Of a stretch of DNA of 64,000 nt, positions 680-37,812 are shown in pieces. Location: IMG/VR virus record IMGVR_UViG_3300007512_001664, positions 128,001-192,000 of that record. One strand, given 5' to 3'. This DNA comes from a virus (Duplodnaviria; Caudoviricetes). Below the pieces are notes generated by a model, which saw nothing but the letters and a program-made list of their open reading frames with translations, was not told where the DNA came from and ran no database searches. The first letter of the stretch is position 1. The number at the start of each line of letters is the position of its first letter. A program made the translations under genes and the position numbers.

Positions 680-684
680 TTTTT

Positions 685-861: not shown

Positions 862-868
862 TAAGACG

Positions 869-961: not shown

Positions 962-964
962 ATA
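959..964 (+). promoter_or_regulatory. Late promoter core TAAATA upstream of the DUF1552 gene
   Basis: TAAATA 5 nt before ATG 970. Confidence 0.55.
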
Positions 965-969
965 ATTCT

Positions 970-2214
970 ATGAACAGGAGGCAGTTTATAGGAGCATTAG
1001 GAGCGTCGTTTGCTTTACCGGGATTGGAGTGTTTCGGTAATGTTTCTGAAGACATAAAAAGATTAGCTGTAGTTTATGTACCTAATGGTATAAACATGCA
1101 CCATTGGACTCCAAGTGCATATGGAGATATAATTGATATACCAAATACTCTATCTCCACTTGAAGCTCATTTAAATGAAACGCAAGTTATTTCTGGTTTA
1201 ACCCACGATAAAGCACGAGCTAATGGTGACGGGGCTGGCGATCATGCTCGAGCAGCTTCTACATTTTTAACTGGAAAGCAAGCTCATAAACATGAATCAA
1301 AAATTAGATCAGGTAAATCTGTTGATCAATACATAGCCGACAAATATAATGGAGTCACTCGATTCGATAGTTTACAAGTTACTGGCAGTAAGGCTCGTTT
1401 AGTAGGTAAATGTGATTCAGGTTATAGTTGTGCTTATCAATATAACTTGTCATGGAAGAATGCTCAACTGCCTATGGCAGCAATGCATGACCCGCAAGAT
1501 ATTTTTAATAGACTTTTTAATGTAAAGACGTTAGAGCAAAAACAATTAGTACATAAAAAATCTATTCTTGATTTTGTATTGGAGGAAAGTAAGACCTTGT
1601 CAGAAAAACTACCTACATCTGATAGAGTTAAGCTTGATGAATATATGTATGCAGTAAGGGAGGTTGAAAAGGACTTACAGACTAGAGAAAGGTTTAAACT
1701 TGATAAAGATTTTGAGCTCGATTTTGAAGTAAATAAAAAATCAAATAAAATAAGACTTTTATATAAGCTTATGCATCTAGCGTTCCTTAATGACACAACA
1801 CGTGTTATAACCTTTCTGACACAACACGATGGTTATAATGGCCCGCATAGAGAGATAGGAATAGCTGATGGTCACCATAGTCTGTCTCATCATCAAAAAG
1901 ATCCTAAAAAATTACATGACCTAGCAATGATAGATTTGTTTAATGTAAGATTGTTTTCTGAGTTTATTACTAAACTTAAAAAAGATAACTTACTAGAAAA
2001 TACAGATGTAATTTATGGTGCAGGTATATCAGACGGAAATAGACATAATCATGATGAATTACCGGTATTATTAGTGGGTGGAAAAAATAAAGGTAAACAT
2101 TTTAGAGTAGAAAAAGAAAAACCAATGTGTGATTTATTTGTAAGTTTGTTGCATAAGCATGGAATAGATATGCACCATTTTGGAGATTCTACGGGAGAGT
2201 TAAATATCGTTTAA
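970..2214 (+). CDS. DUF1552-family protein with twin-arginine (Tat) signal
   Basis: N-terminus MNRRQFIGALGASFALPGL; family-like motifs YVPNG, GDHARAASTFLTG, CDSGYSCAY..NLSW, HHSLSHH, GNRHNHDELP. Confidence 0.82.
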   Translation: MNRRQFIGALGASFALPGLECFGNVSEDIKRLAVVYVPNGINMHHWTPSAYGDIIDIPNTLSPLEAHLNETQVISGLTHDKARANGDGAGDHARAASTFLTGKQAHKHESKIRSGKSVDQYIADKYNGVTRFDSLQVTGSKARLVGKCDSGYSCAYQYNLSWKNAQLPMAAMHDPQDIFNRLFNVKTLEQKQLVHKKSILDFVLEESKTLSEKLPTSDRVKLDEYMYAVREVEKDLQTRERFKLDKDFELDFEVNKKSNKIRLLYKLMHLAFLNDTTRVITFLTQHDGYNGPHREIGIADGHHSLSHHQKDPKKLHDLAMIDLFNVRLFSEFITKLKKDNLLENTDVIYGAGISDGNRHNHDELPVLLVGGKNKGKHFRVEKEKPMCDLFVSLLHKHGIDMHHFGDSTGELNIV

Positions 2215-2798
2215 ATTAACTTTGTTTCTAATCGTGTAAATTCAAAAGTAGCAGAAGAGGTAATTTCTTCTCCTGTAGCATAGTTCCATTTAATTTCAGT
2301 TAATCTAGTAGGGAATGCGCCAATATAGTCCCATTGAATTTTTTTATTTTCATATTCATCTAAACCGTATACTGTTAAATTAGAGGAATATATAGGTAGT
2401 TGTTGGGACGGTGCCATTAATTGTTGAGGTGATTTATATTTTATAATATCATCTTCATTAAAATTGCCAGTTTTAACATCGTTAATAATATCAAGCCATT
2501 TATATATTGCCCAATAGTTATTAAATTCATTATCAATTCTAAAATCTAGATTTAAAGATTCATATGCTGGTCGAGCATGAGAACTGACTTTTATAGTTTG
2601 CGCACCGTATGGTAGTGTTTTTTCTGGTATACTAATGGTAGGTGTTACGGTACCAGCGACACTAATTTCTAAACTATTAGCATCGATTCTATTTGTGTTT
2701 CTGGTTATGTTATCTACAATATTTTTTATACCTTCAGGTAAATTTAAAACCAGTATAAATTTATCATGTCTATTTTTATTAAGTGGTGCTTGATTCAT
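2211..2798 (-). CDS. T4 gp3-like tail completion / tail-tube-fold protein
   Basis: Pattern F.L.L...PTISIP...L.LDF.ID.E..NY..IYKWL...FPT.L.EI.W.Y...ATF resembles gp3/gp19-fold proteins; ATGA-coupled to terminase. Confidence 0.65.
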   Translation of the reverse strand: MNQAPLNKNRHDKFILVLNLPEGIKNIVDNITRNTNRIDANSLEISVAGTVTPTISIPEKTLPYGAQTIKVSSHARPAYESLNLDFRIDNEFNNYWAIYKWLDIINDVKTGNFNEDDIIKYKSPQQLMAPSQQLPIYSSNLTVYGLDEYENKKIQWDYIGAFPTRLTEIKWNYATGEEITSSATFEFTRLETKLI

Positions 2799-4513
2799 AC
2801 TTTAATATATCCTTGTGCTTCTAATTCGTCCATATCTGTATTGTAGTTAGGAGCTCCGTCCTCATTAAAAATATTTATATCTGTAAAATGTACTGAAGGC
2901 GGATTCCAGCTGTCATCAATATTTTGCATTTTATAATCTTGCAAGAAGTTACTAAATTTTTGATCAATATATGGACCTAGTTCGATTTTTGCGGGGCGTT
3001 GATTATCGTCGATTTCTATAACATTATAATATTTTTGTATAACGCTATTTTCTAATATTAATAACGCCCATACCATTGCCATTACTCTGTCGTCAAAATC
3101 AAAGCCAGGCTGAGCAGCCCAAGAACCGTTCGGATACCGTACGAAGTTTTTCATTTCTACGACAGATGTTTTTGATTTTATGTCAACACATTTAATATCG
3201 TTAACCCAATATCTCATATTAGTAATACCCTTATATTTGGTATTAGTATGAGCGTATACTCCTAACCTGTCATATTTAATTTGACCTATTTTAGGGGACC
3301 AATTGACGATACTTCTATAATTATATTGGTGATATAAATTATCTACAACTTGACTACCGCAATTATTTCTTTCAATTAACACAGGAGGTGCTCCCCAGTG
3401 ATAACATATATCTCGAACTTTAGTAGTAAATTCAAACGGATTAATTTCGTTAGATGCATACTCTGCAACTTGTTTTATATGTTGTAAGTCAGTTATATCT
3501 AAGACTTGTATAACGCTATAGTTTTGACCGACACCTTCAGCTACATCAACACCAATAGTATATAAATGATCTTTATCTGGTTCTTCCCACACTCTATAAC
3601 ACCCATCGTCAAATACATATGTCGGTTCAGTTGTATTCGATAATAATTTTTCAAAGAAAATTTCATCAATAAACGAATCTCCTGTATCAAGAAACTTACA
3701 ATCAAATTCTTGAGCGAACGCTTCTTCACTACCTATAGACTTAATAGTGTCTTGTTTCCATTTTTCATCTCTACCGGGAACTTCATGCCATAGTATAGTT
3801 TCTGATTTCCAGTTGTTTACTCCTTTTTCTGCTTCTGTATATAACGTATAAAATAAGTTACCACTACCATTAGGGGTAGATGCTACAAATATTTTAGATT
3901 TTGTTGATGAGGAAATAATTGGATATACTGACTTCCAAAATTCTTCAACAAGATTATTTGGGATAAAAGCTAACTCATCTAGAATTAATACATTTACAGA
4001 TTCACCGCGACCAGCGTCCGAGCTAGTAGTGCTAATACCTATACTACTACCGTTTGCTAATTTCATGGATGTTTTACCATATTCTAAAACCCCGGGTTTA
4101 AGATAGTTCGGTAAATTTTCATATGCGAGTCTAACTCTCGAAAAAATACTAATTGCAGTTTGTTCTTTGTTAGCCACGATTAATATTCGCTGATCGTCCT
4201 GAAAGCAGGCAATCCATAAAGCGTAAATCGTCATCATGGTAGTTTTGCCTGTTTGTCTACTAGCTAAGCAAGCTACAAATCTGTTATCTCTCAGACTACG
4301 TAATACTCTTTTCTGACAAGGGTATAAGTTTATTTTTATTTTACCTCGATCAAGGTTAACAATGTGAAAAAAGTTTTCTGCAAAATAGAGAATGTTCTGT
4401 TTAGCTTTTTTAAGCGATTTGACCATGTCTGGAGTCCATTCATACTCCATGTTAGGGTTAGGTAAATTTGTATTACCTAAATAGAATTTATCGTCTTTTT
4501 TTAGCCTGGGCAC
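2795..4513 (-). CDS. terL: Terminase large subunit (gp17-like)
   Basis: Walker A SRQTGKTT, Walker B LILDELAF, ASTPNG, FAQEFDC, nuclease GVDVAEGVG, IERNNCG, DDRVMA; GTG start. Confidence 0.96.
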   Translation of the reverse strand: MPRLKKDDKFYLGNTNLPNPNMEYEWTPDMVKSLKKAKQNILYFAENFFHIVNLDRGKIKINLYPCQKRVLRSLRDNRFVACLASRQTGKTTMMTIYALWIACFQDDQRILIVANKEQTAISIFSRVRLAYENLPNYLKPGVLEYGKTSMKLANGSSIGISTTSSDAGRGESVNVLILDELAFIPNNLVEEFWKSVYPIISSSTKSKIFVASTPNGSGNLFYTLYTEAEKGVNNWKSETILWHEVPGRDEKWKQDTIKSIGSEEAFAQEFDCKFLDTGDSFIDEIFFEKLLSNTTEPTYVFDDGCYRVWEEPDKDHLYTIGVDVAEGVGQNYSVIQVLDITDLQHIKQVAEYASNEINPFEFTTKVRDICYHWGAPPVLIERNNCGSQVVDNLYHQYNYRSIVNWSPKIGQIKYDRLGVYAHTNTKYKGITNMRYWVNDIKCVDIKSKTSVVEMKNFVRYPNGSWAAQPGFDFDDRVMAMVWALLILENSVIQKYYNVIEIDDNQRPAKIELGPYIDQKFSNFLQDYKMQNIDDSWNPPSVHFTDINIFNEDGAPNYNTDMDELEAQGYIKV

Positions 4514-4525
4514 TATAAATATTTA
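4514..4525. promoter_or_regulatory. Palindromic bidirectional late promoter (TATAAATATTTA)
   Basis: TATAAATA (+) at 4514-4521 is 5 nt before ATG 4527; TAAATA (-) at 4520-4525 is 6 nt before the terminase GTG; the intergenic gap is only 13 bp. Confidence 0.7.
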
Positions 4526-4526
4526 C

Positions 4527-5774
4527 ATGAACAGCAAAGATTTAAACTCTATTAATGAAGCCTTTGCAAATGCTACGGCAAAGGTAGTTGCTGAAGACAC
4601 TGCGAAGACGGAAACTATTCTTGAAGAGGATAGTAAGAAAGTTAATGAAGACCTCGGTCCAGATTTTGGTGATGAAGAGGATTTTGGTGATCCTTCTCGT
4701 CATAGTGGTGATTATTTAGATGATGAGCCATTAGATGTCGGGGATCTAGTAGAGGTTGAGGGTGAGGATGATGATTACGTAGTTATTGATGTTGACGGTG
4801 AGTATCTTAATTTAGCTGCCGTTGGCGACGCAATCGAGGTTAAAAGAGACAGTGTTGTAAAGAAAGAATCAGTTAGAGTTGAAAGAAAGCTAGTCACACT
4901 TAAGGAGAAAAAGAAAATTATGAGTTTTACAAATATAATGGAAGAGTATGAAAGTCGGTTATCTTCAGGTTCAAAAGGCTTTTCGTTAAAAGCTAGATTA
5001 AATGAAGAGGACGGTACGTCATATAAGCAGCCTGATGAAAGTAAGTATAATAAGGTTGACGATAAAACACAACGTCCTGCTGAAGAAACCGATTCAACAA
5101 AGGAGTCACCTACATGTAATGTCGAGGATGATTTGCAAGAGCCTAAAGAAGCAGAAGAAAAAGTTGCTGAAAAGGAAGAGAAAGTTGTTGAGGATAGTAT
5201 AAATAATTCTAACAAAGGTAATATTATGTCAGAAGATAAATCTATATTTGATAAGCTCTACGAGCAAGTTATGAATGAAGACGATGAATTCGGTGCTGAG
5301 TTAGGTCTGCCTAGCCCTGATGATCTCGGGTTTGATGACGACGAAACAGGTGATGAAAACGGTGATGTTACTATCACATTAACTGCCGATCAAGCCGCTG
5401 CCATTCAAGCCGTCGCTGATCAATTAGCTCCAGCCGACGACGACACAGCAGAAGATGAATTTGACGCTGCTGAAGAACCGGAAGAGGGAGTTGCACATGA
5501 AAGTGCAGAGAACGCTGAAACAGTGTCTGAGGGAGATGAAACATCTACTGGAAAGCCGACAGGCGCTGGTGCAAAGACAGGTGTTGATCCTTCTGATGGT
5601 GGTGGTAATGCTACAGATCCAGCTGCTGATAGTTTAGGTGGTAAGTCTACAGGTACGGGTGATGCTAAGGTTACGGACGACGATCCGACAACTGGCAAGC
5701 CGACGACTGATGGTAAAAAGACTGGTGATACCAAGTATGGCAAAGGCCCGTTAAAGGCTAATGCAAAGACATAA
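4527..5774 (+). CDS. Acidic late protein, probable prohead core/internal head protein
   Basis: Very D/E-rich with a G/T/D/K-rich C-terminal region and a KOW/SH3-like segment (VGDLVEVEG); late promoter upstream and terminator downstream. Function is inferred. Confidence 0.55.
   Translation: MNSKDLNSINEAFANATAKVVAEDTAKTETILEEDSKKVNEDLGPDFGDEEDFGDPSRHSGDYLDDEPLDVGDLVEVEGEDDDYVVIDVDGEYLNLAAVGDAIEVKRDSVVKKESVRVERKLVTLKEKKKIMSFTNIMEEYESRLSSGSKGFSLKARLNEEDGTSYKQPDESKYNKVDDKTQRPAEETDSTKESPTCNVEDDLQEPKEAEEKVAEKEEKVVEDSINNSNKGNIMSEDKSIFDKLYEQVMNEDDEFGAELGLPSPDDLGFDDDETGDENGDVTITLTADQAAAIQAVADQLAPADDDTAEDEFDAAEEPEEGVAHESAENAETVSEGDETSTGKPTGAGAKTGVDPSDGGGNATDPAADSLGGKSTGTGDAKVTDDDPTTGKPTTDGKKTGDTKYGKGPLKANAKT
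5198..5205 (+). promoter_or_regulatory. Internal perfect late promoter TATAAATA within the 4527-5774 CDS
   Basis: Followed by AAGG (5215-5218) and an in-frame ATG at 5226. Confidence 0.5.
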
Positions 5775-9895: not shown

Positions 9896-10784
9896 TTTTA
9901 ATCGCCTTGTTAATAATATTTATTATATTTTCGTTATTATTAAACGATTCGCGCCATGAAGAATAGTTTCTCACAACAGACCACATGTTCAATTTCTTTG
10001 CTTCTTCTATAAACTTTTTATAATCACTCTTATGTTTCTTGCATTTTTCTAATTGCTCTTCATATACTGGTACTTCGTCAGGATAGTAATCATAACCTGT
10101 AGTTAAGTCCATTAATTTTAAATTCCTCTCGTAAATAACTTGTTGTTCATCTGTTAATCGATTTAAATCTAATTTTTTAAATCGAGCAAGACCATATCTA
10201 GGTATTCCAGGTATATTATCAGACTTATCACCTGTTACTGCTCTGTAATTTAAATATTGCTCTTTAGTTACTCCTGTATACTCTTCGAAGTTTTGTAACG
10301 TAACTATTTTCTTTTTTATAGGGCTATAAATTCTAGTATCAACAGAGATTGTTTGTAGTAAATCTTTATCAGTGGTTACTATAACACTTTTACCGGGTAG
10401 GTGAGATGATAACCAAGACATTAAATCATCAGCCTCCATCCTTAACGGATACATATTATGTACACCTAATAAGGAAATAACATCTTGTATTTTTTCTGAG
10501 TATTCATGAACATCTTTGAACTTATCGTCGTCTCTATTTGCTTTATACTCTACGGTAATAACTTCACTCCTGAAATTAGACGAAGGCCATTCTAACTTCT
10601 TATCCCATGTACAATAAATTTGTTTTGGCTGAAACTTGTCTACATACGATTTTAAAGATCGTAAGAATAAAAATACTTGACCAGGACTATCTTTTTCGTC
10701 TAATTTGAAATTATTAGTCCAAAATATTCGGTATAAGAGGTTATTACCATCAATTATGAGATTGTTAGTTCCACCATTTTTCAT
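9882..10784 (-). CDS. rnh: 5'-3' exonuclease / T4 RNase H (FEN-like)
   Basis: IIDGNN, YKANR, EADDL, TTDKDLLQ, GDKSDNIPGI. Confidence 0.92.
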   Translation of the reverse strand: MKNGGTNNLIIDGNNLLYRIFWTNNFKLDEKDSPGQVFLFLRSLKSYVDKFQPKQIYCTWDKKLEWPSSNFRSEVITVEYKANRDDDKFKDVHEYSEKIQDVISLLGVHNMYPLRMEADDLMSWLSSHLPGKSVIVTTDKDLLQTISVDTRIYSPIKKKIVTLQNFEEYTGVTKEQYLNYRAVTGDKSDNIPGIPRYGLARFKKLDLNRLTDEQQVIYERNLKLMDLTTGYDYYPDEVPVYEEQLEKCKKHKSDYKKFIEEAKKLNMWSVVRNYSSWRESFNNNENIINIINKAIKNAKS

Positions 10785-11769
10785 TTTTAATATACCACAT
10801 TATAGTATATTTTAAATCATCGGCAAATGTTTTTTTAGTTTCAGAAAATTCTAATTGATCTCCTGCTTTAATTATCATCGATTTATATATTGAATCACTT
10901 AAGCTATATCTAAGATCATGACCTTTCCTATCCTCAGCAAAACTAATTAATTTTTTAGGTTTATCGAGTATGTCTAATATGAGATTTACAATTTCAATAT
11001 TAGGTATTTCCGATTGATAGTGCGAGTCAGGAGCAAGGTTATATATTGTTCCTGAGGTTCCTAGTTTTAATACGTTATATATTTTTTCGCAATGATCTTT
11101 GACGTATATCCATTGACGTATGTTATCACCTTTACCATATACCGGTATCTGTTCGTCGTTAGTAGCTTTTTGAGCGATAACTGGAATAAGTTTCTCGGGG
11201 TATTGCCTAGGACCAAAATTATTTGTACATCTCGTTACGATAATATCTTTCTTATATGTTTTATGAAAAGATAATGCTAATAAATCAGCGCCTGCTTTTG
11301 TTGCAGAGTATATAGAAGATGGTTCTAATAAGTCATCCTCTTCACTAGGGTTCGAATCAAATTGTAAACTACCATATACTTCATCTGTCCCTACTTGGAG
11401 AAATCTCGTATTGTCAGGTAATTGTTTTAATAATTCATACACACCTACATAATTACTATCAATAAAAACATCCCCGTCGTTAATACTATTATCTACGTGT
11501 GATTCAGCTGCGAAATTTACAATATAATCATATTGTTTATCCAATTTAAAATCCGAGACACTTACATATATTATATCTAATTTATTACTAGACCCATCCG
11601 GGTGCTTATATAAATCCCATAGATAATCTTCAGTGTTCTGTGATACACAATAGGCATAACTATCTATTATTGTTACATTACAGTTTTCACATTCACGGTG
11701 AAGTAGCTCTACGAAATGACTTCCAATGAATCCCAAGCCACCTGTTACTAGGATGTTTTTATCTTTCAT
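10765..11769 (-). CDS. rmlB: dTDP-glucose 4,6-dehydratase
   Basis: VTGGLGFIGS, FAAESHVDNS, QVGTDEVYG, YSATKAG, NNFGPRQYPEKLIP, DRKGHDLRY. Confidence 0.93.
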   Translation of the reverse strand: MKDKNILVTGGLGFIGSHFVELLHRECENCNVTIIDSYAYCVSQNTEDYLWDLYKHPDGSSNKLDIIYVSVSDFKLDKQYDYIVNFAAESHVDNSINDGDVFIDSNYVGVYELLKQLPDNTRFLQVGTDEVYGSLQFDSNPSEEDDLLEPSSIYSATKAGADLLALSFHKTYKKDIIVTRCTNNFGPRQYPEKLIPVIAQKATNDEQIPVYGKGDNIRQWIYVKDHCEKIYNVLKLGTSGTIYNLAPDSHYQSEIPNIEIVNLILDILDKPKKLISFAEDRKGHDLRYSLSDSIYKSMIIKAGDQLEFSETKKTFADDLKYTIMWYIKNEKWWN

Positions 11770-12688
11770 CTGCTATTTCTTTAGTAAAATATGTTTCTTT
11801 TTTACCTAATATTCTAAATAGTGATTCTCGTTCCGTTGGCATATCTAACCCACGTGCTTTTAATTTATCTATTGATAAAACGCAATTAGATCTATTAGCA
11901 ACAATATGTTGTTTTAATTCATTGTAAGTAATAAACTTCCAATGAGGATTCCACAAACCATGCTCATCTAAAATGCTACAAACTTCAGATGTTTGAAGAG
12001 GTTCAGGGTTTACGCAATTATAAACACCACCGGGTAAGTCTTCGATGTTAACTATTTTATTAATTACGACTAGTAAATCCTCAATAACAGTTTTAGAGTT
12101 TACATCGTTTAAGACGTTATTGTATTTTAAAATCTTACTTAAGTAGTTTTTTTGTGAATTAAAATCATTACAAATAGGCATTCTTATGCGTAGAGTATAA
12201 ACATTGCCAAAGTTGTTTAAACATAATTCTGCTGCATGTTTTGTCTTACTATACCAACTACTATCAGGGTTAGTTAACCCGAAATTTGGCTCGTCTTCTT
12301 CAGTAAATGATACTGTGTCAAGCACGTCTAATGTATCATATATACACCCGGAACTTACATTAATAAGTTTCGCGTTATGTTGAGTACAGAATTGAGCTAA
12401 CATAGTAGGTAGTGTTACGTTCAAATCCCAGCATGTTTGTTTTTGTTCTTCACATGCGTCTACATTTGGAGAACCAGTAAAACCAACACAATTAATTACC
12501 CATTTGTTTTGTGATCCTCGGAACTCGGTTATTAAATTAGTAAATAATGTTTCTTTTAACTTTTCGGGTGAAGTATATGGATAGTTCGACAAGCGAACTA
12601 CATCGTATATACCTTCTAAGTTCTCTTCAAAATGCTTATAAGCCTTCTTCCCAATATAACCGTTACCTAAGACAATTATTTTATTCAT
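11759..12688 (-). CDS. NDP-4-keto-6-deoxyglucose 3,5-epimerase/4-reductase (NRS/ER, UER1-like)
   Basis: GFTGSPNVDACE, SSGCIY, EEDEPNF, YSKTK, TLRIRMPI, N..SKILKY..V....NSKTV; closer to plant NRS/ER than to canonical RmlD. Confidence 0.8.
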   Translation of the reverse strand: MNKIIVLGNGYIGKKAYKHFEENLEGIYDVVRLSNYPYTSPEKLKETLFTNLITEFRGSQNKWVINCVGFTGSPNVDACEEQKQTCWDLNVTLPTMLAQFCTQHNAKLINVSSGCIYDTLDVLDTVSFTEEDEPNFGLTNPDSSWYSKTKHAAELCLNNFGNVYTLRIRMPICNDFNSQKNYLSKILKYNNVLNDVNSKTVIEDLLVVINKIVNIEDLPGGVYNCVNPEPLQTSEVCSILDEHGLWNPHWKFITYNELKQHIVANRSNCVLSIDKLKARGLDMPTERESLFRILGKKETYFTKEIADER

Positions 12689-17207: not shown

Positions 17208-18560
17208 TTACATCACTCTTCCGAATTGTACAGCGTCATCTTCCGCAGCGTTCACATCTTCATTTATATTCAAATCGTTATTTTCTGTAAGAGTAAGAGT
17301 GTTATAGTCTATAGACACTCGAGTACTACCCGTGTTAGAACCAAATCGATTTTTAATAATACCTATATGAAGAGCATCATCTTCTTCATCCTCTTCTGTT
17401 CTCCATATACTAACTATTGCATCAGCAGTAGCTCCTAGACCATAACTTTCACCAATAGCATCTAAACCAGGACCACCAGCGTTATTACCTGTACCGTACC
17501 CTGTTCTGTTTACTTGTGTTGCAGATACAATTGGACATTCAAAGGTATATGACATTGCTCTTACTTGTTCAGATATACTTTTTATTCGTTCATATGAATT
17601 ATTACCATATGTACTTGCCATTAAGTTTAAATAATCAAGTACAATAATATCAGGTTTAAATTTTTTGTTTATTAGTTTTTTTATAAAACCTTCTAATTGT
17701 GGAGGTGTAATTGAACTCGGAGCAAATTCTTTAATTATAATATTTCCTCGAGGGTGTGTTATTTTAAATTTACCTACTCTATCTCTCAATTCTTCGACGT
17801 GATCATCTAAATGATTTATAGGTAATCCAGTAAGCTTAGATGTAATTCGTTTACAATAAATCATTTCTGACATTTCGAGAGAAATAACTAAAACATTTTT
17901 ATCTTCTGCTGCAGCGTTACTTGCTATATTACTCAAGAATATAGATTTTCCAACGTTAGTAGGTCCAGCAAAAATATACATACTACGCCCTTGTTCGAGG
18001 AATCCTCCTCCTAATCTAGTATCAAGCCAATCCCAGCCTGTTTTAATTTTTTCTTCCCGTGTCGTTAGGTCAGTAATATGTTGCTCTACATCTTTAAAAT
18101 AATTATGACCTGTATTTGTCGTAATAGAGATGTTACATGCTTTTGAGAACTTATCATGAATGCTTTTTACATCTCTTTCTTTATTATCAACAATTTCTAA
18201 AAACGTATTAAACACAGCTTGTTCTTGTAAAAACTTCTCTGTGTAAGAAAGTAATAAGTCATTAGATAATTCTACTTCTAAAACATCAATGATTTTTTTA
18301 CTTGCTTCGTAATGCTGTTTAAGTTGTGGTGTGTTTAAATATAATTGTAATTCAGTAATAGTCGGACGTCTATTATTCTTCCGATAAAGTGCTTGAATGA
18401 TTTTAATTATTTGCTGAAAGTCTTTATTCTTAAAAAATTTATAATTAAGATTATCAATAATAGAATTTAGATAAACTTCGTCTTCAAGACAATTCTTAAA
18501 AACTACCTTTTCTAAATATTCTAAATCTATATCTAAGTAATTACTTTCGTTTGTTAGCAT
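17208..18560 (-). CDS. 41: Replicative helicase (gp41/DnaB-like)
   Basis: GPTNVGKS, SLEMSE, IIKEF, LDYLNL, ATQVNR, KNRFG. Confidence 0.95.
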   Translation of the reverse strand: MLTNESNYLDIDLEYLEKVVFKNCLEDEVYLNSIIDNLNYKFFKNKDFQQIIKIIQALYRKNNRRPTITELQLYLNTPQLKQHYEASKKIIDVLEVELSNDLLLSYTEKFLQEQAVFNTFLEIVDNKERDVKSIHDKFSKACNISITTNTGHNYFKDVEQHITDLTTREEKIKTGWDWLDTRLGGGFLEQGRSMYIFAGPTNVGKSIFLSNIASNAAAEDKNVLVISLEMSEMIYCKRITSKLTGLPINHLDDHVEELRDRVGKFKITHPRGNIIIKEFAPSSITPPQLEGFIKKLINKKFKPDIIVLDYLNLMASTYGNNSYERIKSISEQVRAMSYTFECPIVSATQVNRTGYGTGNNAGGPGLDAIGESYGLGATADAIVSIWRTEEDEEDDALHIGIIKNRFGSNTGSTRVSIDYNTLTLTENNDLNINEDVNAAEDDAVQFGRVM

Positions 18561-19242
18561 GTTCTAACAGAGTATTATAGAAGTATTCTTCTGATTTGCT
18601 ATATTCTTCTGTGTGGTTGAGTAGGCCAGGTGATTCATGAATAATGTGAATAGGGGCAGTGGTTAAGCGCAAACCAGCTAAATGACAATCTAAACAAAAT
18701 TTTAGATCATAATAATGGAATCCTTTAAGGTTAGTATCAAATTTTATTTTTTTCTCGGAAATTGATTTTGTCCGAATTGCAAGAAACACTCCGTCTAATA
18801 ATACTACTTCTTTAGGTGTTTGGCCGAAGATTGTAGGGGCATAATCTGTATTATTATGATAATGTGACACTATACCAGACATAGTATCTGGCTTACATAA
18901 TAAATGCCATAAACAAGGTTTTTGAACTTGTAACTTACTTCCTCCAGCGACACCGATAATATCAAATCCTCGCTTAAACGCATTACGAATTTCTACTAAG
19001 AAATTTATGCTATCAATAAATACATCATCATGTACAAAAAGGATACAGTCATATTTTTTAAAATTTTCTGGTATAAGATAATTATTATAAACAGCACACA
19101 ATCCACTAGTATTTTTATATGTAGGCTGTAAGTCGAAAGTAGTTATAGTGTTTTCATCGTGATGAGTTAAGCTTTTAGATAATCTAGTTGTTTTAAAGAT
19201 GGCTTCAGTAGTTTGAGTTGCAACCGCAATTAAAGTTTTCAT
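18541..19242 (-). CDS. GT-A fold glycosyltransferase (GT2-like, Glyco_tranf_2_5 type)
   Basis: AVYNN, LFVHDDV, IIGVAG, LDGVFLA, FHYYDL, HES. Confidence 0.75.
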   Translation of the reverse strand: MKTLIAVATQTTEAIFKTTRLSKSLTHHDENTITTFDLQPTYKNTSGLCAVYNNYLIPENFKKYDCILFVHDDVFIDSINFLVEIRNAFKRGFDIIGVAGGSKLQVQKPCLWHLLCKPDTMSGIVSHYHNNTDYAPTIFGQTPKEVVLLDGVFLAIRTKSISEKKIKFDTNLKGFHYYDLKFCLDCHLAGLRLTTAPIHIIHESPGLLNHTEEYSKSEEYFYNTLLEHANKRK

Positions 19243-19877
19243 ATAAAAAATGGAGAATTTAATTTAAATGTATTAGTTTTAGTAAAGTTATTTTTACTAA
19301 AATTAAATTCATATACTGTACCCTCTTCCACCATTTCCCATTCCGAATATGGCGCTGAACTAAATGATTTATTATCAGTAAATAATGTGGAACCGGATCT
19401 AAAAATACGTAACCTACCCATATCTGGTTCATACATCCAGCATCCAAATGTTCCTTCAATTTCCGATAGAGCGTTTTGTATACCAGACATATATATCAAC
19501 GGTAATATTATACTACTATCTACTTTATTTACCTTACTTGATAATGTGTATTTTTCTTTTAATTTATCAAAATTTTGTAGTACGCCGTTATGCGCTAAAT
19601 ATGTATTTTTATATGAAAATGGATGTGATGTATCAATATTAAAAGTTCTAACTTCTGTCGTAGGGGACTGTACATGTCCTAGGTAATATAAACAAAATGG
19701 ATTTTCTTCTATATGTCTATTAAAATCTTGTTCGTATTTCGTCATTACGCGGACATTATTTTTCATTCCGCTAGGAAACATCATTGTTACGCTACGTACA
19801 AAATTACCCCTTTCTGAGTTCTTTGTATATAACTCTCTAAATGTTTTAATATCTGTTGAACCAAAAATACCACACAT
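19239..19877 (-). CDS. Class II (Ntn) glutamine amidotransferase
   Basis: N-terminal MCGIFG nucleophile, GHVQSPT, HPF, AHNG, VDS. Confidence 0.85.
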   Translation of the reverse strand: MCGIFGSTDIKTFRELYTKNSERGNFVRSVTMMFPSGMKNNVRVMTKYEQDFNRHIEENPFCLYYLGHVQSPTTEVRTFNIDTSHPFSYKNTYLAHNGVLQNFDKLKEKYTLSSKVNKVDSSIILPLIYMSGIQNALSEIEGTFGCWMYEPDMGRLRIFRSGSTLFTDNKSFSSAPYSEWEMVEEGTVYEFNFSKNNFTKTNTFKLNSPFFI

Positions 19878-19878
19878 A

Positions 19879-20835
19879 TTATTTTAATTGTATGAACTTT
19901 GTATCACTCAGGCAACTTAAATCTTTACACCCGGCGTATGAAATAGAGCTCTTAAGAGCTTTTTCGATTTCTTTTAATCTAATATTATACTCTGGAGCTA
20001 AGTCTATTGCTATCTCTCTCCCTTCAACGAAATTTAATTTATTTCCCTTTTGCATATATGATGTACTTCCATAATATTCCTTATACCCATCAACAATTTT
20101 AGCTGGTGAGTCTACACACCCTGCAAAGAAAGAACCAGCCATTACACAGTCTGCTCCAGCAACTAATGCTTTTGCGACATCTCCAAATTCTCGACAACCA
20201 CCATCGGCCATTATTTTAGCTTTTGTTTTATGTGAGGTAATTTTTAACAATGTTGAAAACATTGGTGTACCAAAGCCTGTTTTATATCTCGTAGTACAAA
20301 TAACTCCAGATCCGATTCCTACTTTAATAACGTCAGCACCGGAGTCTTCTAAAAAATGGAACCCGTCGTATGTTCCAACATTACCAGCGATAACTATTAC
20401 ATCAGGTAAATTCCTTTTAACGTATCTAATCATATTACCGACTTTTTGATGATGTCCGTGCGCAACGTCAATTGTAATAATATCAACTTTATAATTATTA
20501 TCTATAATCGCTTCTAATTCTTGATATGATTTTTCATTTACCCCTATACTGACACTCACACAATTACAATTAAGCTCATTAAGTTGTCGCACTGTTTCAA
20601 ATACATCCTGAAATCGATGCATAATATAAAAATAATTATTATCATCTAATTGCTTACAGAGTTTGAGATCTATTACCGTTTCCATGTTAGATGGAACAAC
20701 TGGTAGATTAAATGTAAACTTACCTAATTTAAAAGATGTGTCGGCGTTGTTTCGAGTATCTAATTGACTATATCCTGGTACTAATAAGATATCAGAATAT
20801 TCTAGCTCTTTACCATGGTATATCTGTTCGCTCAT
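19879..20835 (-). CDS. guaC: GMP reductase
   Basis: PSNMETV, MHRF, IDVAHGH, AGNV, KVGIGSGVICTT, MADGG, YYGS, VEG. Confidence 0.9.
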   Translation of the reverse strand: MSEQIYHGKELEYSDILLVPGYSQLDTRNNADTSFKLGKFTFNLPVVPSNMETVIDLKLCKQLDDNNYFYIMHRFQDVFETVRQLNELNCNCVSVSIGVNEKSYQELEAIIDNNYKVDIITIDVAHGHHQKVGNMIRYVKRNLPDVIVIAGNVGTYDGFHFLEDSGADVIKVGIGSGVICTTRYKTGFGTPMFSTLLKITSHKTKAKIMADGGCREFGDVAKALVAGADCVMAGSFFAGCVDSPAKIVDGYKEYYGSTSYMQKGNKLNFVEGREIAIDLAPEYNIRLKEIEKALKSSISYAGCKDLSCLSDTKFIQLK

Positions 20836-21496
20836 ATTCGATTGGGTCTTTGATTTTATTCTCTAAAAAGCCTTGTATACGTGAACTACAAGCAGTACAA
20901 TAACCGCATGCAACTTCTTTACCTTCATAACAAGTCCAAGTGTCTTCAAAACGCACACCATTATCTAATCCCAGTTTTACGATTTCTCGTTTAGATAACT
21001 CAATTAACGGTGCTTCTATTTTAATTAGATTTTTTCTATTTAAACTTGTAACGTTATTAATTTCAGTTAAAAATTCCTTACTACCATCCCAGTATCCAGC
21101 CTGACTATCTACCAAGGCTGATCCATGATAAACAGTATTAGCTCCGACCGCTTCAGCATATGAACATGCAATAGACAGCATCATCATATTACGAAATGGC
21201 ACATAGTTTACAGTTTGAGCGTCTCCTAGAACATCTCTCGTATGAGCGACTTTAATTTTATTGTTTGTTAAGGAAGAAGTATTAGCAATAGTTTTAAAAA
21301 ATTGTATATCTAATATTTTATGTTGTTCGATACAATCATAATTAATTAATTGAAACCCTGCGAATTGAATTTCTTTACGATGCTTTTGACCGTAATCAAA
21401 AGTTATTGCATATATATCATCATGTCGATCCGCTGCTATGCTTAGTATTACGGAACTATCTAAACCTCCTGAAATAGGTACAACTGCTTTACTCAT
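20810..21496 (-). CDS. queC: 7-cyano-7-deazaguanine synthase
   Basis: SGGLDS, FDYGQKH, VPFRN, TWTCY, CGYCTAC..R. Confidence 0.93.
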   Translation of the reverse strand: MSKAVVPISGGLDSSVILSIAADRHDDIYAITFDYGQKHRKEIQFAGFQLINYDCIEQHKILDIQFFKTIANTSSLTNNKIKVAHTRDVLGDAQTVNYVPFRNMMMLSIACSYAEAVGANTVYHGSALVDSQAGYWDGSKEFLTEINNVTSLNRKNLIKIEAPLIELSKREIVKLGLDNGVRFEDTWTCYEGKEVACGYCTACSSRIQGFLENKIKDPIEYERTDIPW

Positions 21497-22577
21497 CTTC
21501 TTGTTCTAATATAGCACCCTCGTCTAATGATTTACCATACCGGTATTTTTCATTTATAGAAGATTCTAACTTAGGTAATATAGATTTCCACGTCTCTTCG
21601 TCATTGCGCCAATTCTTATAATAACCTAATTTTTTATCCCCCATACTATATGTAGAACCATTTTGTTGTACAATACCGTGAGATACGGCAATATCTTTTA
21701 ATCCAGAATATTTTTCTAGACCTGTTTTGAAATTTAAATATGCTTCCGCTTGTAAAAATGCTGGAATAAATCTATTTTTTACGGTAAGCATTCTAAGAGT
21801 AACTCCGGAATAGTTTCTACTTTCTGATAGCGCCTCGTCGTTGTCGTTTGAAGCGTCAGTTCTTTCTTTTTTAGCTGCCATTTGGACTAATAAAGAAGCC
21901 ATGTACATAGGGCCCGACCCACCAGCTTGTTGCTTGACTAAGGTAGGATGGAGTGCACCAGGATCAGCATATGTATGATTACTACATATAATAGTTGTAC
22001 CGGTCACCGCGGCCTTATATGTAATAATACGCATCATGGATTTTAGCTGTTTGGCCCGCAGCCCCATGTCCATGGCTCCTTTATTAGACTCAGCATCAAG
22101 AATTTCTTTTGATGATGCTAAATTACCTAATGAATCTATTGATATAATAAATTTTCCGTGAAGTTCTGGTTCATTTTCTACTTCATCTAAAAATGCCATT
22201 ATTTGATTACGACAGTTTTCTACAGTATCTATTGGAACATACTTTACATTAGAAACATCTAGACCTACATTTTCTGCACCTTCTTTTTCAATAGCGACCT
22301 CTGTGTCAAATATTATAGGTATCATTCCTTGCTTTTGAGCTTTAGCGAGAATTTTATTTAAAATAAAAGTCTTACCGCATTGAGACTCTCCAGCGAAAAT
22401 TGTAATTCTACCCTTAGGTACGCCACCATGTAGTGACCCAGATAGGATAGAATTTAATACTAAACAACCTGTATCAATCCACTCTGTTACATTACTCAGA
22501 GTGTTTTTCTCTAAAGTAGTAGCATTGCTGTTAAGCTTTTGGAGCTTAGCAAATGCCTTATCAACCAGTTTTGACAT
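21489..22577 (-). CDS. uvsX: UvsX/RecA-like recombinase
   Basis: IDTG..LN..LSGS..GG.P.GR, GESQCGKT, DTE, IDSLGNL, GGSG, KNRF. Confidence 0.93.
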   Translation of the reverse strand: MSKLVDKAFAKLQKLNSNATTLEKNTLSNVTEWIDTGCLVLNSILSGSLHGGVPKGRITIFAGESQCGKTFILNKILAKAQKQGMIPIIFDTEVAIEKEGAENVGLDVSNVKYVPIDTVENCRNQIMAFLDEVENEPELHGKFIISIDSLGNLASSKEILDAESNKGAMDMGLRAKQLKSMMRIITYKAAVTGTTIICSNHTYADPGALHPTLVKQQAGGSGPMYMASLLVQMAAKKERTDASNDNDEALSESRNYSGVTLRMLTVKNRFIPAFLQAEAYLNFKTGLEKYSGLKDIAVSHGIVQQNGSTYSMGDKKLGYYKNWRNDEETWKSILPKLESSINEKYRYGKSLDEGAILEQEDE

Positions 22578-22578
22578 A

Positions 22579-22935
22579 TTATTCCTCGAATAATGTTACT
22601 TCAGGTATGTTCTCGTCAGATAGCGTGGTCGCGGCAGGTTCAGGGTTTGACTCTTCCTTGACATTAATCTTAGCATTATAATGAACTAATATTTTATCAG
22701 AAATAGTAACCTCGACTTCTGTGTATTGAGTGTTTAGATATTTAAATATTGGCGCTTCACCGCTAGAAAATTCAGTAAAGAATAACGGCATAACATCAAC
22801 TTTCATATTAGCAGCGTCATTGGGCGTTACCATAATCATCGCTGGTGCTTTAACTCTTAAAGATGAATCTGTTTGCTCTACTAGCTCTCCGAAACACGTC
22901 CTACCTATACTATCAATGTATGTAATGATATCCAT
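22579..22935 (-). CDS. Hypothetical protein (Sm-like fold possible)
   Basis: First gene after a sigma70-like promoter; beta-rich. Confidence 0.7.
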   Translation of the reverse strand: MDIITYIDSIGRTCFGELVEQTDSSLRVKAPAMIMVTPNDAANMKVDVMPLFFTEFSSGEAPIFKYLNTQYTEVEVTISDKILVHYNAKINVKEESNPEPAATTLSDENIPEVTLFEE

Positions 22936-22941
22936 GTAATT

Positions 22942-22969
22942 ATTATATTATCAAAAAATTAATTTGCAA
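22942..22969 (-). promoter_or_regulatory. Sigma70-like promoter TTGCAA-16-TATAAT
   Basis: -10 element ends 6 nt before ATG 22935; heads the uvsX-queC-guaC-GATase-GT-41 run. Confidence 0.65.
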
Positions 22970-34501: not shown

Positions 34502-35140
34502 TTATTTTAAATCTCTGACAAAATCATAGAACTCTTGACGAGTTAAATCTGTTTTATCTAAAAACGCTCCTGACATTCTAGCAGTTTTCATAATACTATC
34601 ATGCTTTACTCCACGAAGACCAGCACAAGTATGATTAGCTGATACTAAAACAGCAACCCCTTTATTATCTTTACATACTTCATTCATATAATTATGAATT
34701 TGCATAGTTAAGTTTTCTTGTACTTGTGGTCTTCTTGAAAACCATTCAACAATTCGGTTAATTTTACTTAAACCAATCACCTTACCATCTTTACCTGGTA
34801 TATAAGATACATGAGCTTGACCGATAAACGGTAAATGGTGGTGAGAACAAAAAGAATTAACTTTAATATTACCTTGAAATACTAATCCATCATATTTATC
34901 AACATTATCAAATGCTGTGATTTTAGGAGGTTCATTATAACAACCCTCAGCTAATTCATTAACAAACGCTTTTGCTACTCGTCTCGGTGTGTCTGCGCTG
35001 TTTGGATCATTTCTCCAGTCGAAACCTAAGGCATCCATATAACACTCATAAGCAGCAGAGGCCTTTTCAATAATTAATTCTTTTTCTTGTTCAGTTCTGG
35101 GCTTGTTACCATTAGCGTATTGAAGTAAATCCTCATTCAT
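34502..35140 (-). CDS. folE: GTP cyclohydrolase I
   Basis: DTPRRVAK, SFCSHHHLPF, GLSK..R, RPQVQE, HTC...RG; likely start is ATG 35140 (MNEDLL). Confidence 0.95.
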   Translation of the reverse strand: MNEDLLQYANGNKPRTEQEKELIIEKASAAYECYMDALGFDWRNDPNSADTPRRVAKAFVNELAEGCYNEPPKITAFDNVDKYDGLVFQGNIKVNSFCSHHHLPFIGQAHVSYIPGKDGKVIGLSKINRIVEWFSRRPQVQENLTMQIHNYMNEVCKDNKGVAVLVSANHTCAGLRGVKHDSIMKTARMSGAFLDKTDLTRQEFYDFVRDLK

Positions 35141-35147
35141 ATGAATC

Positions 35148-35182
35148 ATTATAGTGTATTCGATTTATAAATCAACTAAATA
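35148..35182. promoter_or_regulatory. Divergent control region: sigma70-like TTGATT-16-TATAAT (minus, folE) and TAAATA (plus)
   Basis: -10 at 35148-35153, -35 at 35170-35175; TAAATA at 35177-35182 is 5 nt before ATG 35188. Confidence 0.6.
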
Positions 35183-35660: not shown

Positions 35661-36146
35661 ATGAGTTTTACTAGTACAAAAATTATTGAACTCGGTAGTT
35701 GTGCTTTCCGACAACCAAAAGCAGAATCACATTGCAGATTTATACATGGATATAGATTAACTGCTAAGTTCTGGTTCGGGGCTAATCAATTAGATAAAAA
35801 TAATTGGGTAGTTGATTTCGGTAGTTTAAAGCATCTTAAAAAAGTACTACAAGGTCAATTTGATCACACTCTAGTAATTGCTGCAGATGATCCTGCGATA
35901 AGAGCCTTTAAAATGTTAAATGACGATGACATTGTGGATTTAAGAATTATGGATGGTGTTGGTATTGAGAAATTTGCTGAGTATTGTTTTAATACTGCTA
36001 ATAATTTTATTAAAGAGAGTACAGAGGGTAGGTGCTGGGTAGATAAAGTCGAAGTATTTGAACACGAAAATAATTCTGCTATTTATACAGATAAAATGGT
36101 CACAACTATGAGATTTGTTGACCACACGGATCAAGATAATGGGTAA
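35661..36146 (+). CDS. queD: 6-carboxytetrahydropterin synthase
   Basis: HCRFIHGY, VVDFGSLK, FDH, E. Confidence 0.9.
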   Translation: MSFTSTKIIELGSCAFRQPKAESHCRFIHGYRLTAKFWFGANQLDKNNWVVDFGSLKHLKKVLQGQFDHTLVIAADDPAIRAFKMLNDDDIVDLRIMDGVGIEKFAEYCFNTANNFIKESTEGRCWVDKVEVFEHENNSAIYTDKMVTTMRFVDHTDQDNG

Positions 36147-36288
36147 AGGTAGTAAGCGCCGGAAAGAGGATACCAGTAAACTTAATGATAACTGGGATGA
36201 CATAAAGTGGGATAAACCTAAGAAGAAGGAAGTAGAACCGAAGGCTCGAGACATAAAAGACTTATATTTAAATGACAAATCTTTATAA
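36139..36288 (+). CDS. Small basic protein (49 aa), not in the ORF track
   Basis: MGKGSKRRKEDTSKLNDNWDDIKWDK...; overlaps both queD and queE. Confidence 0.65.
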   Translation: MGKGSKRRKEDTSKLNDNWDDIKWDKPKKKEVEPKARDIKDLYLNDKSL

Positions 36289-37033
36289 AGAAGATCTTAG
36301 TGATAAGACAATACTGCTATCTGATGATAAAGTATTTTATACTGTAGAAGGAGAAGGAGAGTTTGTAGGATATCCTTCAGTCTTTATGCGATTATCTATG
36401 TGTAACCTTACATGTCAGGGTTTCGCTTCAGATGACTCTCCGCATGGTTGTGATAGTTATGTATCTTGGAGTGTAAAGAATAGAATTACAAATGCTGACT
36501 TATTACAACACTTAGAACAGGAAGGTTTTGAAAAGCATTTATATAACGGAGCTATATGGAAGATTACAGGCGGTGAGCCTTTAGTACAGCAGCCCGCATT
36601 GCTTAGGTTTTTAGCATATATGGAGGTAGAATGGGGTTGGGTACCTAGAATTGATTTTGAAACCAACGCTACAATTATGCCTGATAAAGAATGGATTAGA
36701 GTTGGTGCTACATTTACTACTTCTCCTAAGCTTAGTAATAACGGTGACCCAGAAAATAGGAGATATAAACCTAATGTATTAGAATGGCATGCAAACCAGG
36801 GATCTGGTTTTAAATTCGTCATAAGTAAAGAATCAGATTTAGATGAAGTAATGAAAAAGTATGTTGATAAGTTTGATATACCTACAGGTCGTGTCTGGTT
36901 AATGCCTTGCGCTGGTAGTAGAAAAGAGCATATTGAAGTTGCTCCTATGGTTGCAGAGTTAGCTAAAAAGCATCACTTTAATTTTAGTCCTAGGCTGCAT
37001 TTACTAGTATGGGATATGGCCTTAAAGGTATAA
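36272..37033 (+). CDS. queE: 7-carboxy-7-deazaguanine synthase (radical SAM)
   Basis: FYTVEGEG, FMRL..CNLTC...CDS, ITGGEP, ETN, TTSPK, SPRLH. Confidence 0.9.
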   Translation: MTNLYKEDLSDKTILLSDDKVFYTVEGEGEFVGYPSVFMRLSMCNLTCQGFASDDSPHGCDSYVSWSVKNRITNADLLQHLEQEGFEKHLYNGAIWKITGGEPLVQQPALLRFLAYMEVEWGWVPRIDFETNATIMPDKEWIRVGATFTTSPKLSNNGDPENRRYKPNVLEWHANQGSGFKFVISKESDLDEVMKKYVDKFDIPTGRVWLMPCAGSRKEHIEVAPMVAELAKKHHFNFSPRLHLLVWDMALKV

Positions 37034-37053: not shown

Positions 37054-37812
37054 ATGAGGATTGCAATTAGTGGAACCGCGTGTCAGGGTAAAACTACTTT
37101 AATTAAAGACTTCTTAGAGCAATGGCCGAGTTATACTACCCCTAAAAAGACCTATAGAGACATAATTAAAGAAAATAATCTCGAGCATTCATCAAAAACT
37201 AATAAAAAAACACAAAAGAAAATATTAGATTTTATGATTAAAGAGCAAAAAAAATATCGTAGCTCTGATAATGTAATTTTTGATAGATGTCCACTAGATA
37301 ATCTTGTATATAGCATGTGGGCAACCGAACAACCTGAGGTAGATATAGATGATGATTTTGTACAGGAATGTATTCCTCTCGTTAGAGAGAGTTTTCGTAA
37401 TTTAGATATTATATTTTTTACACCTATAACAAAAGTTGCTCCTGTTGAATTAACAGAAGACGATTTACGAGATACTGACCCTAAAGTTATAGAGGAAGTA
37501 GATAATATTTTTAAAGCTATGCACCGAGAATACATGAATAATGATTCGAGTGTGTTTTTTATTAAAGATGATAAACCTGGTATTATAGAAGTATTTGGTA
37601 ATCAGAGAGAACGTATACAAATACTTAAACTTTATATTGATGCTGAGGGAGATATACATCCGGGCGGCGATCTTATCGATGAAGATATGCTATCTGATAT
37701 GAAAGCATTAAGTGGTGTGTGGGCAGATGTAGATCCTACAGAGCATTCTCATTTACGAAAAGCATTAGAAGAGCAAATTGAGAAAGATAAGGCGGGTCGT
37801 ATGAATAAATAA
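37054..37812 (+). CDS. P-loop NMP/dNMP kinase-like (AAA_28/NadR-type) protein
   Basis: IAISGTACQGKTT, FDRCPLD; double TAAATA at 37035-37044. Confidence 0.75.
   Translation: MRIAISGTACQGKTTLIKDFLEQWPSYTTPKKTYRDIIKENNLEHSSKTNKKTQKKILDFMIKEQKKYRSSDNVIFDRCPLDNLVYSMWATEQPEVDIDDDFVQECIPLVRESFRNLDIIFFTPITKVAPVELTEDDLRDTDPKVIEEVDNIFKAMHREYMNNDSSVFFIKDDKPGIIEVFGNQRERIQILKLYIDAEGDIHPGGDLIDEDMLSDMKALSGVWADVDPTEHSHLRKALEEQIEKDKAGRMNK

Follow-up and report, generated by a model that had tools for sequence, protein, structure and literature searches.

Four minus-strand open reading frames (ORFs), identified from an ORF list and profile searches, occupy positions 18541–21496 of the window, a 64,000-nucleotide stretch that corresponds to bases 128001–192000 of the 200,819-bp IMG/VR virus genome IMGVR_UViG_3300007512_001664. 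They encode QueC, a GMP reductase (GuaC), a class II glutamine amidotransferase (GAT) and a GT-A fold glycosyltransferase (GT). The string is wedged between uvsX and the gene for a gp41-type helicase: uvsX and queC overlap by 8 nt, queC and guaC by 26 nt, GAT and GT by 4 nt and GT and gp41 by 20 nt, with guaC and GAT lying 1 nt apart. An earlier note, made from the letters of the window alone, had described four genes overlapping or 1 nt apart between uvsX and gp41 and had placed folE, queD and queE at 34.5–37 kb. The identities, coordinates and spacing of the four genes were all borne out, and FolE, QueD and a QueE-like protein are indeed encoded at the second location. Since the block arrangement is kept in more than 100 metagenomic viral loci, it is no chance arrangement. 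The gene order in T4 is uvsX-40-41, and uvsX abuts gp41 directly in two loci (L048 and L123) of the same group as the present phage. Most likely, though by no means certainly, the block forms part of a DpdA3-type system that is spread over three loci and would put 7-(formylamino)methyl-7-deazaguanine (fdPreQ1) in place of guanine.

Deazaguanine genes across the genome

The source record has 119-bp terminal repeats, a completeness estimate of 100% and a G+C content of 33.6% (66% A+T). Its DNA polymerase is ~30% identical to those of the nearest cultured phages (Pelagibacter phage HTVC008M and cyanomyoviruses), and the phage is an uncultured T4-like one, belonging to a clade known mostly from marine metagenomes. 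A Campylobacter-type phage in which GuaC serves to make dI was considered and rejected, given that no guaC homologue was found in Campylobacter phages and that the polymerase is only ~30% identical to that of any cultured phage.

Outside the window, at 10.4–13.6 kb of the genome, we located a five-gene minus-strand string with the order DpdA3-DpdN-(small ORF)-kinase-QueF (Table 1). Besides its similarity to the protein of phage immuto_2-6A, the DpdA3 protein is ~40% identical to that of CP220 and 27% identical to CGPG_00065 of phiST, and it matches phrog_19058 with an E value of 5e-44. QueF could be aligned with the Vibrio cholerae enzyme (3bp1; E 7e-43), including the catalytic Cys motif LLKSNC...QPDWG and the NADPH motif ESKSxKLY. 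The earlier note could see neither DpdA nor QueF because both lie outside the window; in the complete genome both were found, whereas profile searches of that genome for TGT (PF01702) and DpdA4 (PF20314, DUF6610) returned nothing. DpdA is taken as a signature of DNA modification (PMC10516641), and the combination of DpdA3, DpdN, kinase and QueF marks a DNA-modification system and not a tRNA-queuosine set. The 7-deazaguanine DNA-modification context proposed in the earlier note was thereby upheld and reinforced.

The remaining steps are covered by genes within the window. QueC displays the SGGLDS loop and a C-terminal Cys cluster in its translation, and its TIGR00364 score lies above the cut-off of 150.3 bits. 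The QueE-like protein barely matches radical-SAM models and has a C-x3-C-x11-C spacing of its Cys residues in place of the canonical CxxxCxxC, and it is kept beside QueD in relatives at ~50–55% identity. The second copy of the kinase likewise moves with queD-queE in one of the alternative arrangements described below (arrangement C). DpdA3, the preQ0 pathway (with a weak QueE), QueF, and DpdN beside DpdA3 are hence all present. Judged by this gene content, the genome would carry a complete and already described type of guanine-replacement pathway, for which the fdPreQ1 subtype is the most likely assignment. Five near-complete genomes with the GT were scored; four (G000, G001, G023 and G024) have QueC-GAT-GT, and all four have DpdA3, while one has the GT only. 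Where tested, DpdN was found in G000 and G001, and FolE in G000, G023 and G024. DpdA3 also occurs on contigs of arrangement C.

Table 1. Positions and best matches of the features discussed; positions refer to the window unless marked as genome.
Feature	Position	Strand	Match or remark
Promoter-like site TTGCAA-16-TATAAT	22942..22969	-	10/12 consensus positions; inside the 39-nt gap from DNA polymerase gene to orf118
orf118, conserved small protein, first gene after promoter-like site	22579..22935	-	Without Pfam family; kept upstream of uvsX in relatives
UvsX/RecA-type recombinase, upstream flank	21489..22577	-	PF00154 E 3.7e-17
QueC, 7-cyano-7-deazaguanine (preQ0) synthase, PP-loop ATPase	20810..21496	-	PF06508 E 2e-59; TIGR00364 177.9 bits
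GuaC-type GMP reductase without CBS domain, optional within clade	19879..20835	-	IMPDH/GMPR domain E 8e-61
Stand-alone class II (N-terminal nucleophile, Ntn) GAT, putative QueC partner	19239..19877	-	GATase_6 E 6e-11; N-terminus MCGIFG
GT-A fold glycosyltransferase	18541..19242	-	PF13712 E 2.6e-13, 50.6 bits
gp41-type replicative helicase, downstream flank	17208..18560	-	DnaB_C E 2.5e-27
NDP-sugar 4,6-dehydratase and RmlD-like reductase	10765..12688	-	GDP_Man_Dehyd E 4.7e-50; RmlD_sub_bind E 9.7e-13
FolE, GTP cyclohydrolase I	34502..35149	-	PF01227 E 2.7e-47; 52% identical to immuto FolE
QueD (CPH4 synthase)	35661..36146	+	PTPS E 1.1e-17; 42% identical to immuto and phiST QueD
QueE-like radical SAM protein, divergent	36272..37033	+	Fer4_12 E 0.004; 23% identity, E 3e-6, to immuto QueE
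AAA_28/dNK-like P-loop kinase, second copy	37054..37812	+	AAA_28 E 4.6e-15; phrog_2107 'thymidylate kinase' E 3e-16
DpdA3	genome 12799-13617	-	46% identity over 92% length, E 9e-56, to immuto_2-6A DNA guanine transglycosylase
DpdN-type formyltransferase, adjoining DpdA3	genome 10.4-13.6 kb string	-	PF00551 E 2.6e-11; 40% identity, E 9e-40, to immuto DpdN
116-aa protein, small ORF between DpdN and kinase	genome 10.4-13.6 kb string	-	
AAA_28 kinase-like protein, first copy, beside QueF	genome 11333-11908	-	'Thymidylate-kinase-like'
QueF, bimodular	genome 10.4-13.6 kb string	-	QueF_N 5.5e-33 + QueF 3.7e-17
Small phosphoribosyltransferase (PRT)	genome 19011-19490		Homologue in immuto and phiST

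The closest described system is that of phage immuto_2-6A, in whose DNA 100% of dG is replaced by fdPreQ1 (Cui, Hutinet et al., 2023; PMC10516641). All seven functions are common to the two phages (identities of 46% for DpdA3, 40% for DpdN, 43% for QueF, 52% for FolE and 42% for QueD), as are the operon order DpdA3-DpdN-kinase-QueF and the PRT. The present phage differs in that its genes lie at three separate places in a T4-like genome, that QueC has a stand-alone amidotransferase, with genes for a GMP reductase and a PF13712 GT in the same string, and that the base is a prediction from the genes; no homologue of the GAT or the GT was detectable in immuto. Campylobacter phage CP220 (dADG) and Cellulophaga phage phiST (dDG, with DpdL) also have DpdA3-family proteins and, as in DpdA3 phages generally, show complete replacement (PMC10516641), but their pathways stop before preQ0 and they have neither QueF nor DpdN. 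The PRT of the present genome is common to phiST, which also has MazG.

Several points weigh against the fdPreQ1 reading. QueE is assigned on weak matches; reconstitution of the activity of DpdA3 has yet to be achieved (PMC10516641); and the base in virion DNA is deduced from the genes of a phage known as a metagenomic contig only, the direct observations being what the genes are, which of them the whole genome contains, their synteny and their distribution. Should the reading hold, the DpdA3/DpdN full-replacement system, so far tied to a single cultured group of Flavobacterium phages, would extend to a large, uncultured T4-like clade, and DNA that contains no ordinary G would bear on restriction escape as well as on capture by sequencing and cloning. 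The DpdA3/DpdN-type system is of a known kind; what the new clade adds to it is the division of Gat and QueC into two proteins, a GuaC that may be present or absent, and the GT next door.

The proposed pathway would start with FolE, QueD and the QueE-like protein, which are predicted to turn GTP into 7-carboxy-7-deazaguanine (CDG). QueC would turn CDG into preQ0, with the stand-alone GAT acting as a glutaminase that provides ammonia from glutamine, as a split version of Gat-QueC. QueF would then reduce preQ0 to preQ1, the DpdN-type enzyme would formylate preQ1, and DpdA3 would put the resulting base into DNA. GuaC is seen as an accessory that may drain or rebalance guanine nucleotides, for example guanine freed by base exchange and salvaged by the PRT, towards IMP and AMP in an A+T-rich genome. 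The GT would have an acceptor of its own, may be fed by the nearby RmlD-like reductase and 4,6-dehydratase, and is probably no dedicated deazaguanine enzyme.

Route of incorporation and the GMP reductase

The choice between base exchange and incorporation at the deoxynucleoside triphosphate level had been left open in the earlier note. The presence of DpdA3 gives a first answer, but the PRT and the kinases keep a nucleotide-level route under consideration, for they hint at reactions on nucleotides, which the published model of post-replicative exchange leaves unexplained. Such a route would have a modified (d)NTP assembled by the PRT and both P-loop kinases, with GuaC, or a dGTP diphosphohydrolase in relatives, clearing G nucleotides and DpdA3 either acting on a nucleotide or serving just as a back-up. 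The PRT and a kinase-like gene are kept with DpdA3 both here and in immuto, with the PRT also in phiST; MazG-type or dGTP diphosphohydrolase genes occur in phiST, in phage pf16 and in the cassette of locus L049; and the total replacement in DpdA3 phages, together with the ADG nucleoside detected in infected cells (PMC10516641), is consistent with a route of this kind. We nevertheless regard it as unlikely, given that the published view is one of post-replicative exchange by DpdA, that the roles of the kinases and the PRT are predicted only, and that neither MazG nor a PF18909 protein was found in the complete genome, the PF18909 search having been run without a positive control.

GuaC itself has the appearance of a divergent but ordinary type-2 GMP reductase. 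It aligns over its full length (residues 7–315) with the Bacillus anthracis GMP reductase 1ypf (E 4e-74), its catalytic Cys loop GIGSGVICTT corresponds to GIGPGKVCIT of that enzyme, and it contains no CBS insert. Its scores fall below the NCBIfam equivalog cut-offs (316.8 vs 344 bits for PRK05458 and 288.6 vs 465.65 bits for TIGR01306). Many relatives with QueC-GAT-GT do without the gene (L029, L033, L034, L037, L038, L044, L046, L047, L072, and L078 onward), which marks it as an accessory insertion, and it is sporadic in unrelated phages such as Bacillus phage G, Caulobacter phage Cr30, Thermus phage phiYS40 and jumbo phages.

The earlier note had proposed that the phage lowers guanine nucleotides while making its modified base. 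This part of the proposal stands in so far as GuaC looks bona fide and the L049 cassette includes a dATP/dGTP diphosphohydrolase, but it is weakened by the many relatives that lack guaC. The L049 cassette (385–4717) reads QueC, a reverse ORF, GAT, GNAT, the dATP/dGTP diphosphohydrolase (PF18909, E 1.5e-19), GT and a cupin of the phosphomannose isomerase (PMI) type, and is followed by gp41; its GNAT might acylate preQ1 in place of DpdN. MazG-type genes adjoin que genes in pf16 and phiST, so that enzymes removing G nucleotides recur around these pathways. From the G+C count, a whole-genome base exchange would free about 67,575 guanines, and salvage of this guanine by the PRT followed by its diversion through GuaC is a plausible use of the enzyme. 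A literature search on GMP reductase or glycosyltransferase in connection with deazaguanine found nothing relevant.

The glycosyltransferase and its neighbourhoods

The GT scores above the PF13712 gathering cut-off of 27 bits. Its AlphaFold2 model (pLDDT 94.4) has a GT-A fold, with the complex of majastridin with UDP (2qgi, TM 0.67) and StrF as the best structural matches, and residues H71-D72-D73, which form an acidic DxD-type motif, as well as D150 and H202 are invariant in 30 homologues. Majastridin (Rhodobacter blasticus ATPase-operon ORF6, PDB 2qgi/2nxv), which binds UDP, and StrF provide the closest folds, solved or predicted (TM 0.67–0.73, profile E 1.2e-5), though at 17–19% identity to the GT. 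A sequence search against solved structures returned majastridin only, a Protein Atlas search returned only the GT's own family, and tblastn against 50,697 deposited phage records gave no match. Among metagenomic sequences, relatives of the GT form 107 clusters and occur on 562 viral stretches, and the profile search finds 5,471 representatives. Five of the eight top-ranked profile hits that were scanned turned out to be domains inside multidomain proteins that combine tetratricopeptide repeats (TPR) with an OGT-like GT41 domain; these cellular relatives (P0117, P0115, P0119, P0124 and P0139) are 550–2000 aa long. The fusions suggest, as far as the sequences go, that protein or glycan is the acceptor for the family.

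A glycosyltransferase encoded in the replication module is also a feature of T4. The alpha- and beta-glucosyltransferases of T4 resemble the GT in their placement within the replication module of a T4-like phage, but they are of the GT-B type and need hydroxymethylcytosine. A ThyA-family hydroxymethylase (PF00303) was not found in the complete genome, which therefore offers no classical DNA sugar acceptor. A possible supply of donor for the GT is the dehydratase and RmlD-like reductase pair, which is conserved downstream of gp32 in the clade; since the reductase is also kept in que-less L129 and L133, its occurrence follows that of the GT and not that of QueC.

Four genomic contexts of the GT could be distinguished. 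Arrangement A, uvsX-QueC-[GuaC]-GAT-GT-gp41, is that of the present phage and was seen in more than 100 loci, down to a polymerase identity of ~46%. In arrangement B the GT lies among QueD, the QueE-like gene and kinase-QueF, with no adjacent GAT (L036, L099 and L101–103). Arrangement C has the order queD-queE-kinase-...-QueC-GAT-two small ORFs-GT and is found beside structural genes, away from uvsX and gp41 (L132, L155, L172 and others). Arrangement D, uvsX-...-GT-...-gp41 without QueC or GAT, was found at ten loci (L129, L133, L147, L157, L168, L170, L171, L174, L176 and, on a contig that stops after the GT, probably L177). Outside these arrangements, the GT overlaps a dNMP kinase gene upstream of the polymerase in L048/L123, and a bacterial locus (L045) has it without que genes.

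The record behind L176, G018, is a complete genome of 202,205 bp with terminal repeats, in which the GT (PF13712) lies between uvsX and gp41; the interval comprises UvsX, three reverse ORFs, the GT, two small ORFs and gp41. Profile searches of G018 found no DpdA3, TGT, FolE or QueD (PTPS), and the QueC profile reached only 25 bits, on the PP-loop only. (At its C-terminus, the gp41 helicase of L176, at 11280–12632, gave a weak intein-splicing match, E 7e-4.) In a maximum-likelihood tree of 90 GTs, rooted at the midpoint only and with near-identical A-type sequences above 60% identity left out except four, at least four changes are required to account for the que-less type, which is scattered among the que-linked clades. 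As G018, the bacterial L045 and the TPR-GT41 fusions demonstrate, the GT is not confined to genomes with the pathway. Judging by its distribution, the GT can occur apart from the deazaguanine pathway and probably settled earlier in the uvsX-gp41 interval of this superclade.

A coupling between the GT and the deazaguanine, as suggested in the earlier note, was unsupported, since G018 carries the GT in the same interval but has no DpdA3, TGT, FolE or QueD. That note had also proposed following the co-occurrence of the GT with queC and GAT, with a GT distributed independently of que genes counting against the coupling. The outcome was mixed: the que-linked GTs of arrangements A and C agree with a coupling, whereas the orthologue-like GTs of the ten que-less loci indicate that distribution is in part independent.

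A number of observations weigh against independence of the GT, and the same observations speak for a role in base modification, in which the GT would transfer a (6-deoxy)hexose onto a preQ1-derived 7-deazaguanine in DNA or in a precursor, the donor being an NDP-(deoxy)hexose made by the phage's own dehydratase and reductase. The 4-nt overlap of GAT and GT persists across deep divergence, down to 37% GT identity; the QueC-GAT-x-x-GT genes survived rearrangement, having moved as a block into the structural-gene neighbourhood of arrangement C; arrangement B places the GT among que genes; and in L049 it is flanked by the dATP/dGTP diphosphohydrolase and GNAT, in a cassette that also holds the PMI-type cupin. 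Moreover, the que-less GTs are only ~35% identical and could have a different acceptor. The overlap, the block move and the neighbourhood of arrangement B leave room for a functional link. No description of a glycosylated deazaguanine in DNA was found in the literature.

The history of the GT allele can be read in the same way. Compared with the nearest backbone, L069 (97–99% nucleotide identity), the present phage shows two sharply bounded divergent patches, one in the 5' half of queC (75–79% nucleotide identity, window 21200–21500) and one that is almost exactly the GT (71–82%, window 18650–19250). L051/L053, with a backbone of only 82–86% identity, have a GT allele that matches the one of the present phage at 93%; the allele has hence been exchanged between sub-lineages by recombination, as an arms-race gene would be.

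A sugar-modified base is quite unlikely all the same. The GT stands at the same site in a complete genome devoid of deazaguanine genes, and que-less GTs are interspersed with que-linked ones in the tree; an obvious place for a sugar is lacking in fdPreQ1, and the GT would have to compete with DpdN for the preQ1 amine; immuto_2-6A produces fdPreQ1 in the absence of the GT; and the cellular relatives are fused to protein-glycosylation domains. If the sugar-modified base were nonetheless real, it would be without precedent as a glycosylated deazapurine in a genome, and the swapping of GT alleles between phages of 97–99% identity would be the trace of an arms race over the sugar. Because the GT is separable from the pathway, a claim of glycosylated deazaguanine needs chemistry and not synteny.

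The amidotransferase and the surroundings of the block

To return to the proposed fdPreQ1 pathway, a further component of it is the GAT. The protein begins with the MCGIFG sequence that contains the Ntn Cys of class II amidotransferases; a sequence search against solved structures gave no match. Homologues of 26–31% identity were found directly after QueC, with QueF alongside, in Schizotequatroviruses (among them VH7D, KVP40, nt-1, phi-Grn1 and phi-ST2), in Pseudomonas phage pf16 and in Vibrio phage 2.275.O, such that the QueC-GAT pair beside QueF recurs in four phage lineages. Since QueC is followed by a GAT in several phage groups, the two form a recurrent two-gene module. These modules share with the present phage the stand-alone class II amidotransferase directly after QueC and the presence of QueF, but they come without GT or GuaC. 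It is worth noting that VH7D (and nt-1) use DpdA2 and that the substitution in the Schizotequatrovirus group is ~0.1% (PMC10516641; PMC6884629).

By analogy with asparagine synthetase B, we infer that the GAT is the glutaminase of QueC, feeding it ammonia derived from glutamine, rather than a maker of an amidine. This reading is based on two observations: the DNA of phi-Grn1 and phi-ST2 contains dPreQ1/mdPreQ1 and a dG+ level of 0 (PMC10516641, Table 1), and QueF and DpdN are present in the DpdA3 operon. The split pair of QueC and class II amidotransferase, including that of KVP40-type vibriophages, thus probably makes preQ0 synthesis glutamine-dependent, and constitutes a testable, unstudied module.

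The known precedent for a joined QueC and class II amidotransferase is the Gat-QueC of phage 9g (Hutinet et al., 2019; PMC6884629), in which the two functions reside in one polypeptide and which, together with DpdA, yields dG+ in E. coli DNA; the fusion also exists in archaea (Crenarchaeota) (PMC6884629). Phage 9g has no QueF, whereas the present phage has separate proteins together with QueF and DpdN. QueC and GAT are separate ORFs here, with guaC between them, and they are separate in all relatives too. Were the pair to work as the fused enzyme does, it would make the archaeosine base and the DNA would contain dG+, as the earlier note had supposed. That the fused 9g protein has dG+ as its product, and that the Ntn Cys is intact in the GAT, are points for this supposition, and the former weighs against the glutaminase role; so does the want of support for a GAT-QueC contact, although the score of the QueC + GT + GAT prediction (0.01), for which controls were absent, is evidence neither way. 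We consider an archaeosine product improbable enough to carry little weight, because a canonical QueF and DpdN lie in one operon with DpdA3, QueF always accompanies the split pair, and no dG+ was present in two phages that have that pair; the inference of dG+ accordingly found no support.

Least support of all falls to the proposal that the que genes boost host tRNA queuosine while the DNA stays unmodified, a type of reading that has been proposed for marine phages and for which QueA, QueG and TGT would be dispensable if the host supplies them, but which is scarcely credible with DpdA3 and a DpdN orthologue in the gene order of immuto and no tRNA-type TGT in the genome.

Upstream of the block, the earlier note had assigned all four genes to a single sigma70-like promoter. 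The promoter-like site exists and lies in the sole intergenic gap of the gene string, but matches of this kind are as frequent in the AT-rich stretch as in shuffled sequence (41 vs 40.6, no excess over chance), so that its position is the sole argument for it, and the transcription unit behind it would also take in orf118, uvsX and gp41. A DNA-level search with the cassette against deposited phages returned only a short guaC match, in Staphylococcus phages.

Two further observations concern other parts of the window. A 414-aa protein encoded at 970–2214, adjoining the large terminase, gave a strong HXXSHH/DUF1552 match (E 4.5e-78), which is unusual in a phage. A partial scan of positions 38846–64000 revealed a large island of glycan genes comprising several GTs, methyltransferases and two cytidylyltransferase-type enzymes, along with an HpcH aldolase, a HAD-NTP-transferase fusion and a 2-hydroxyacid dehydrogenase.

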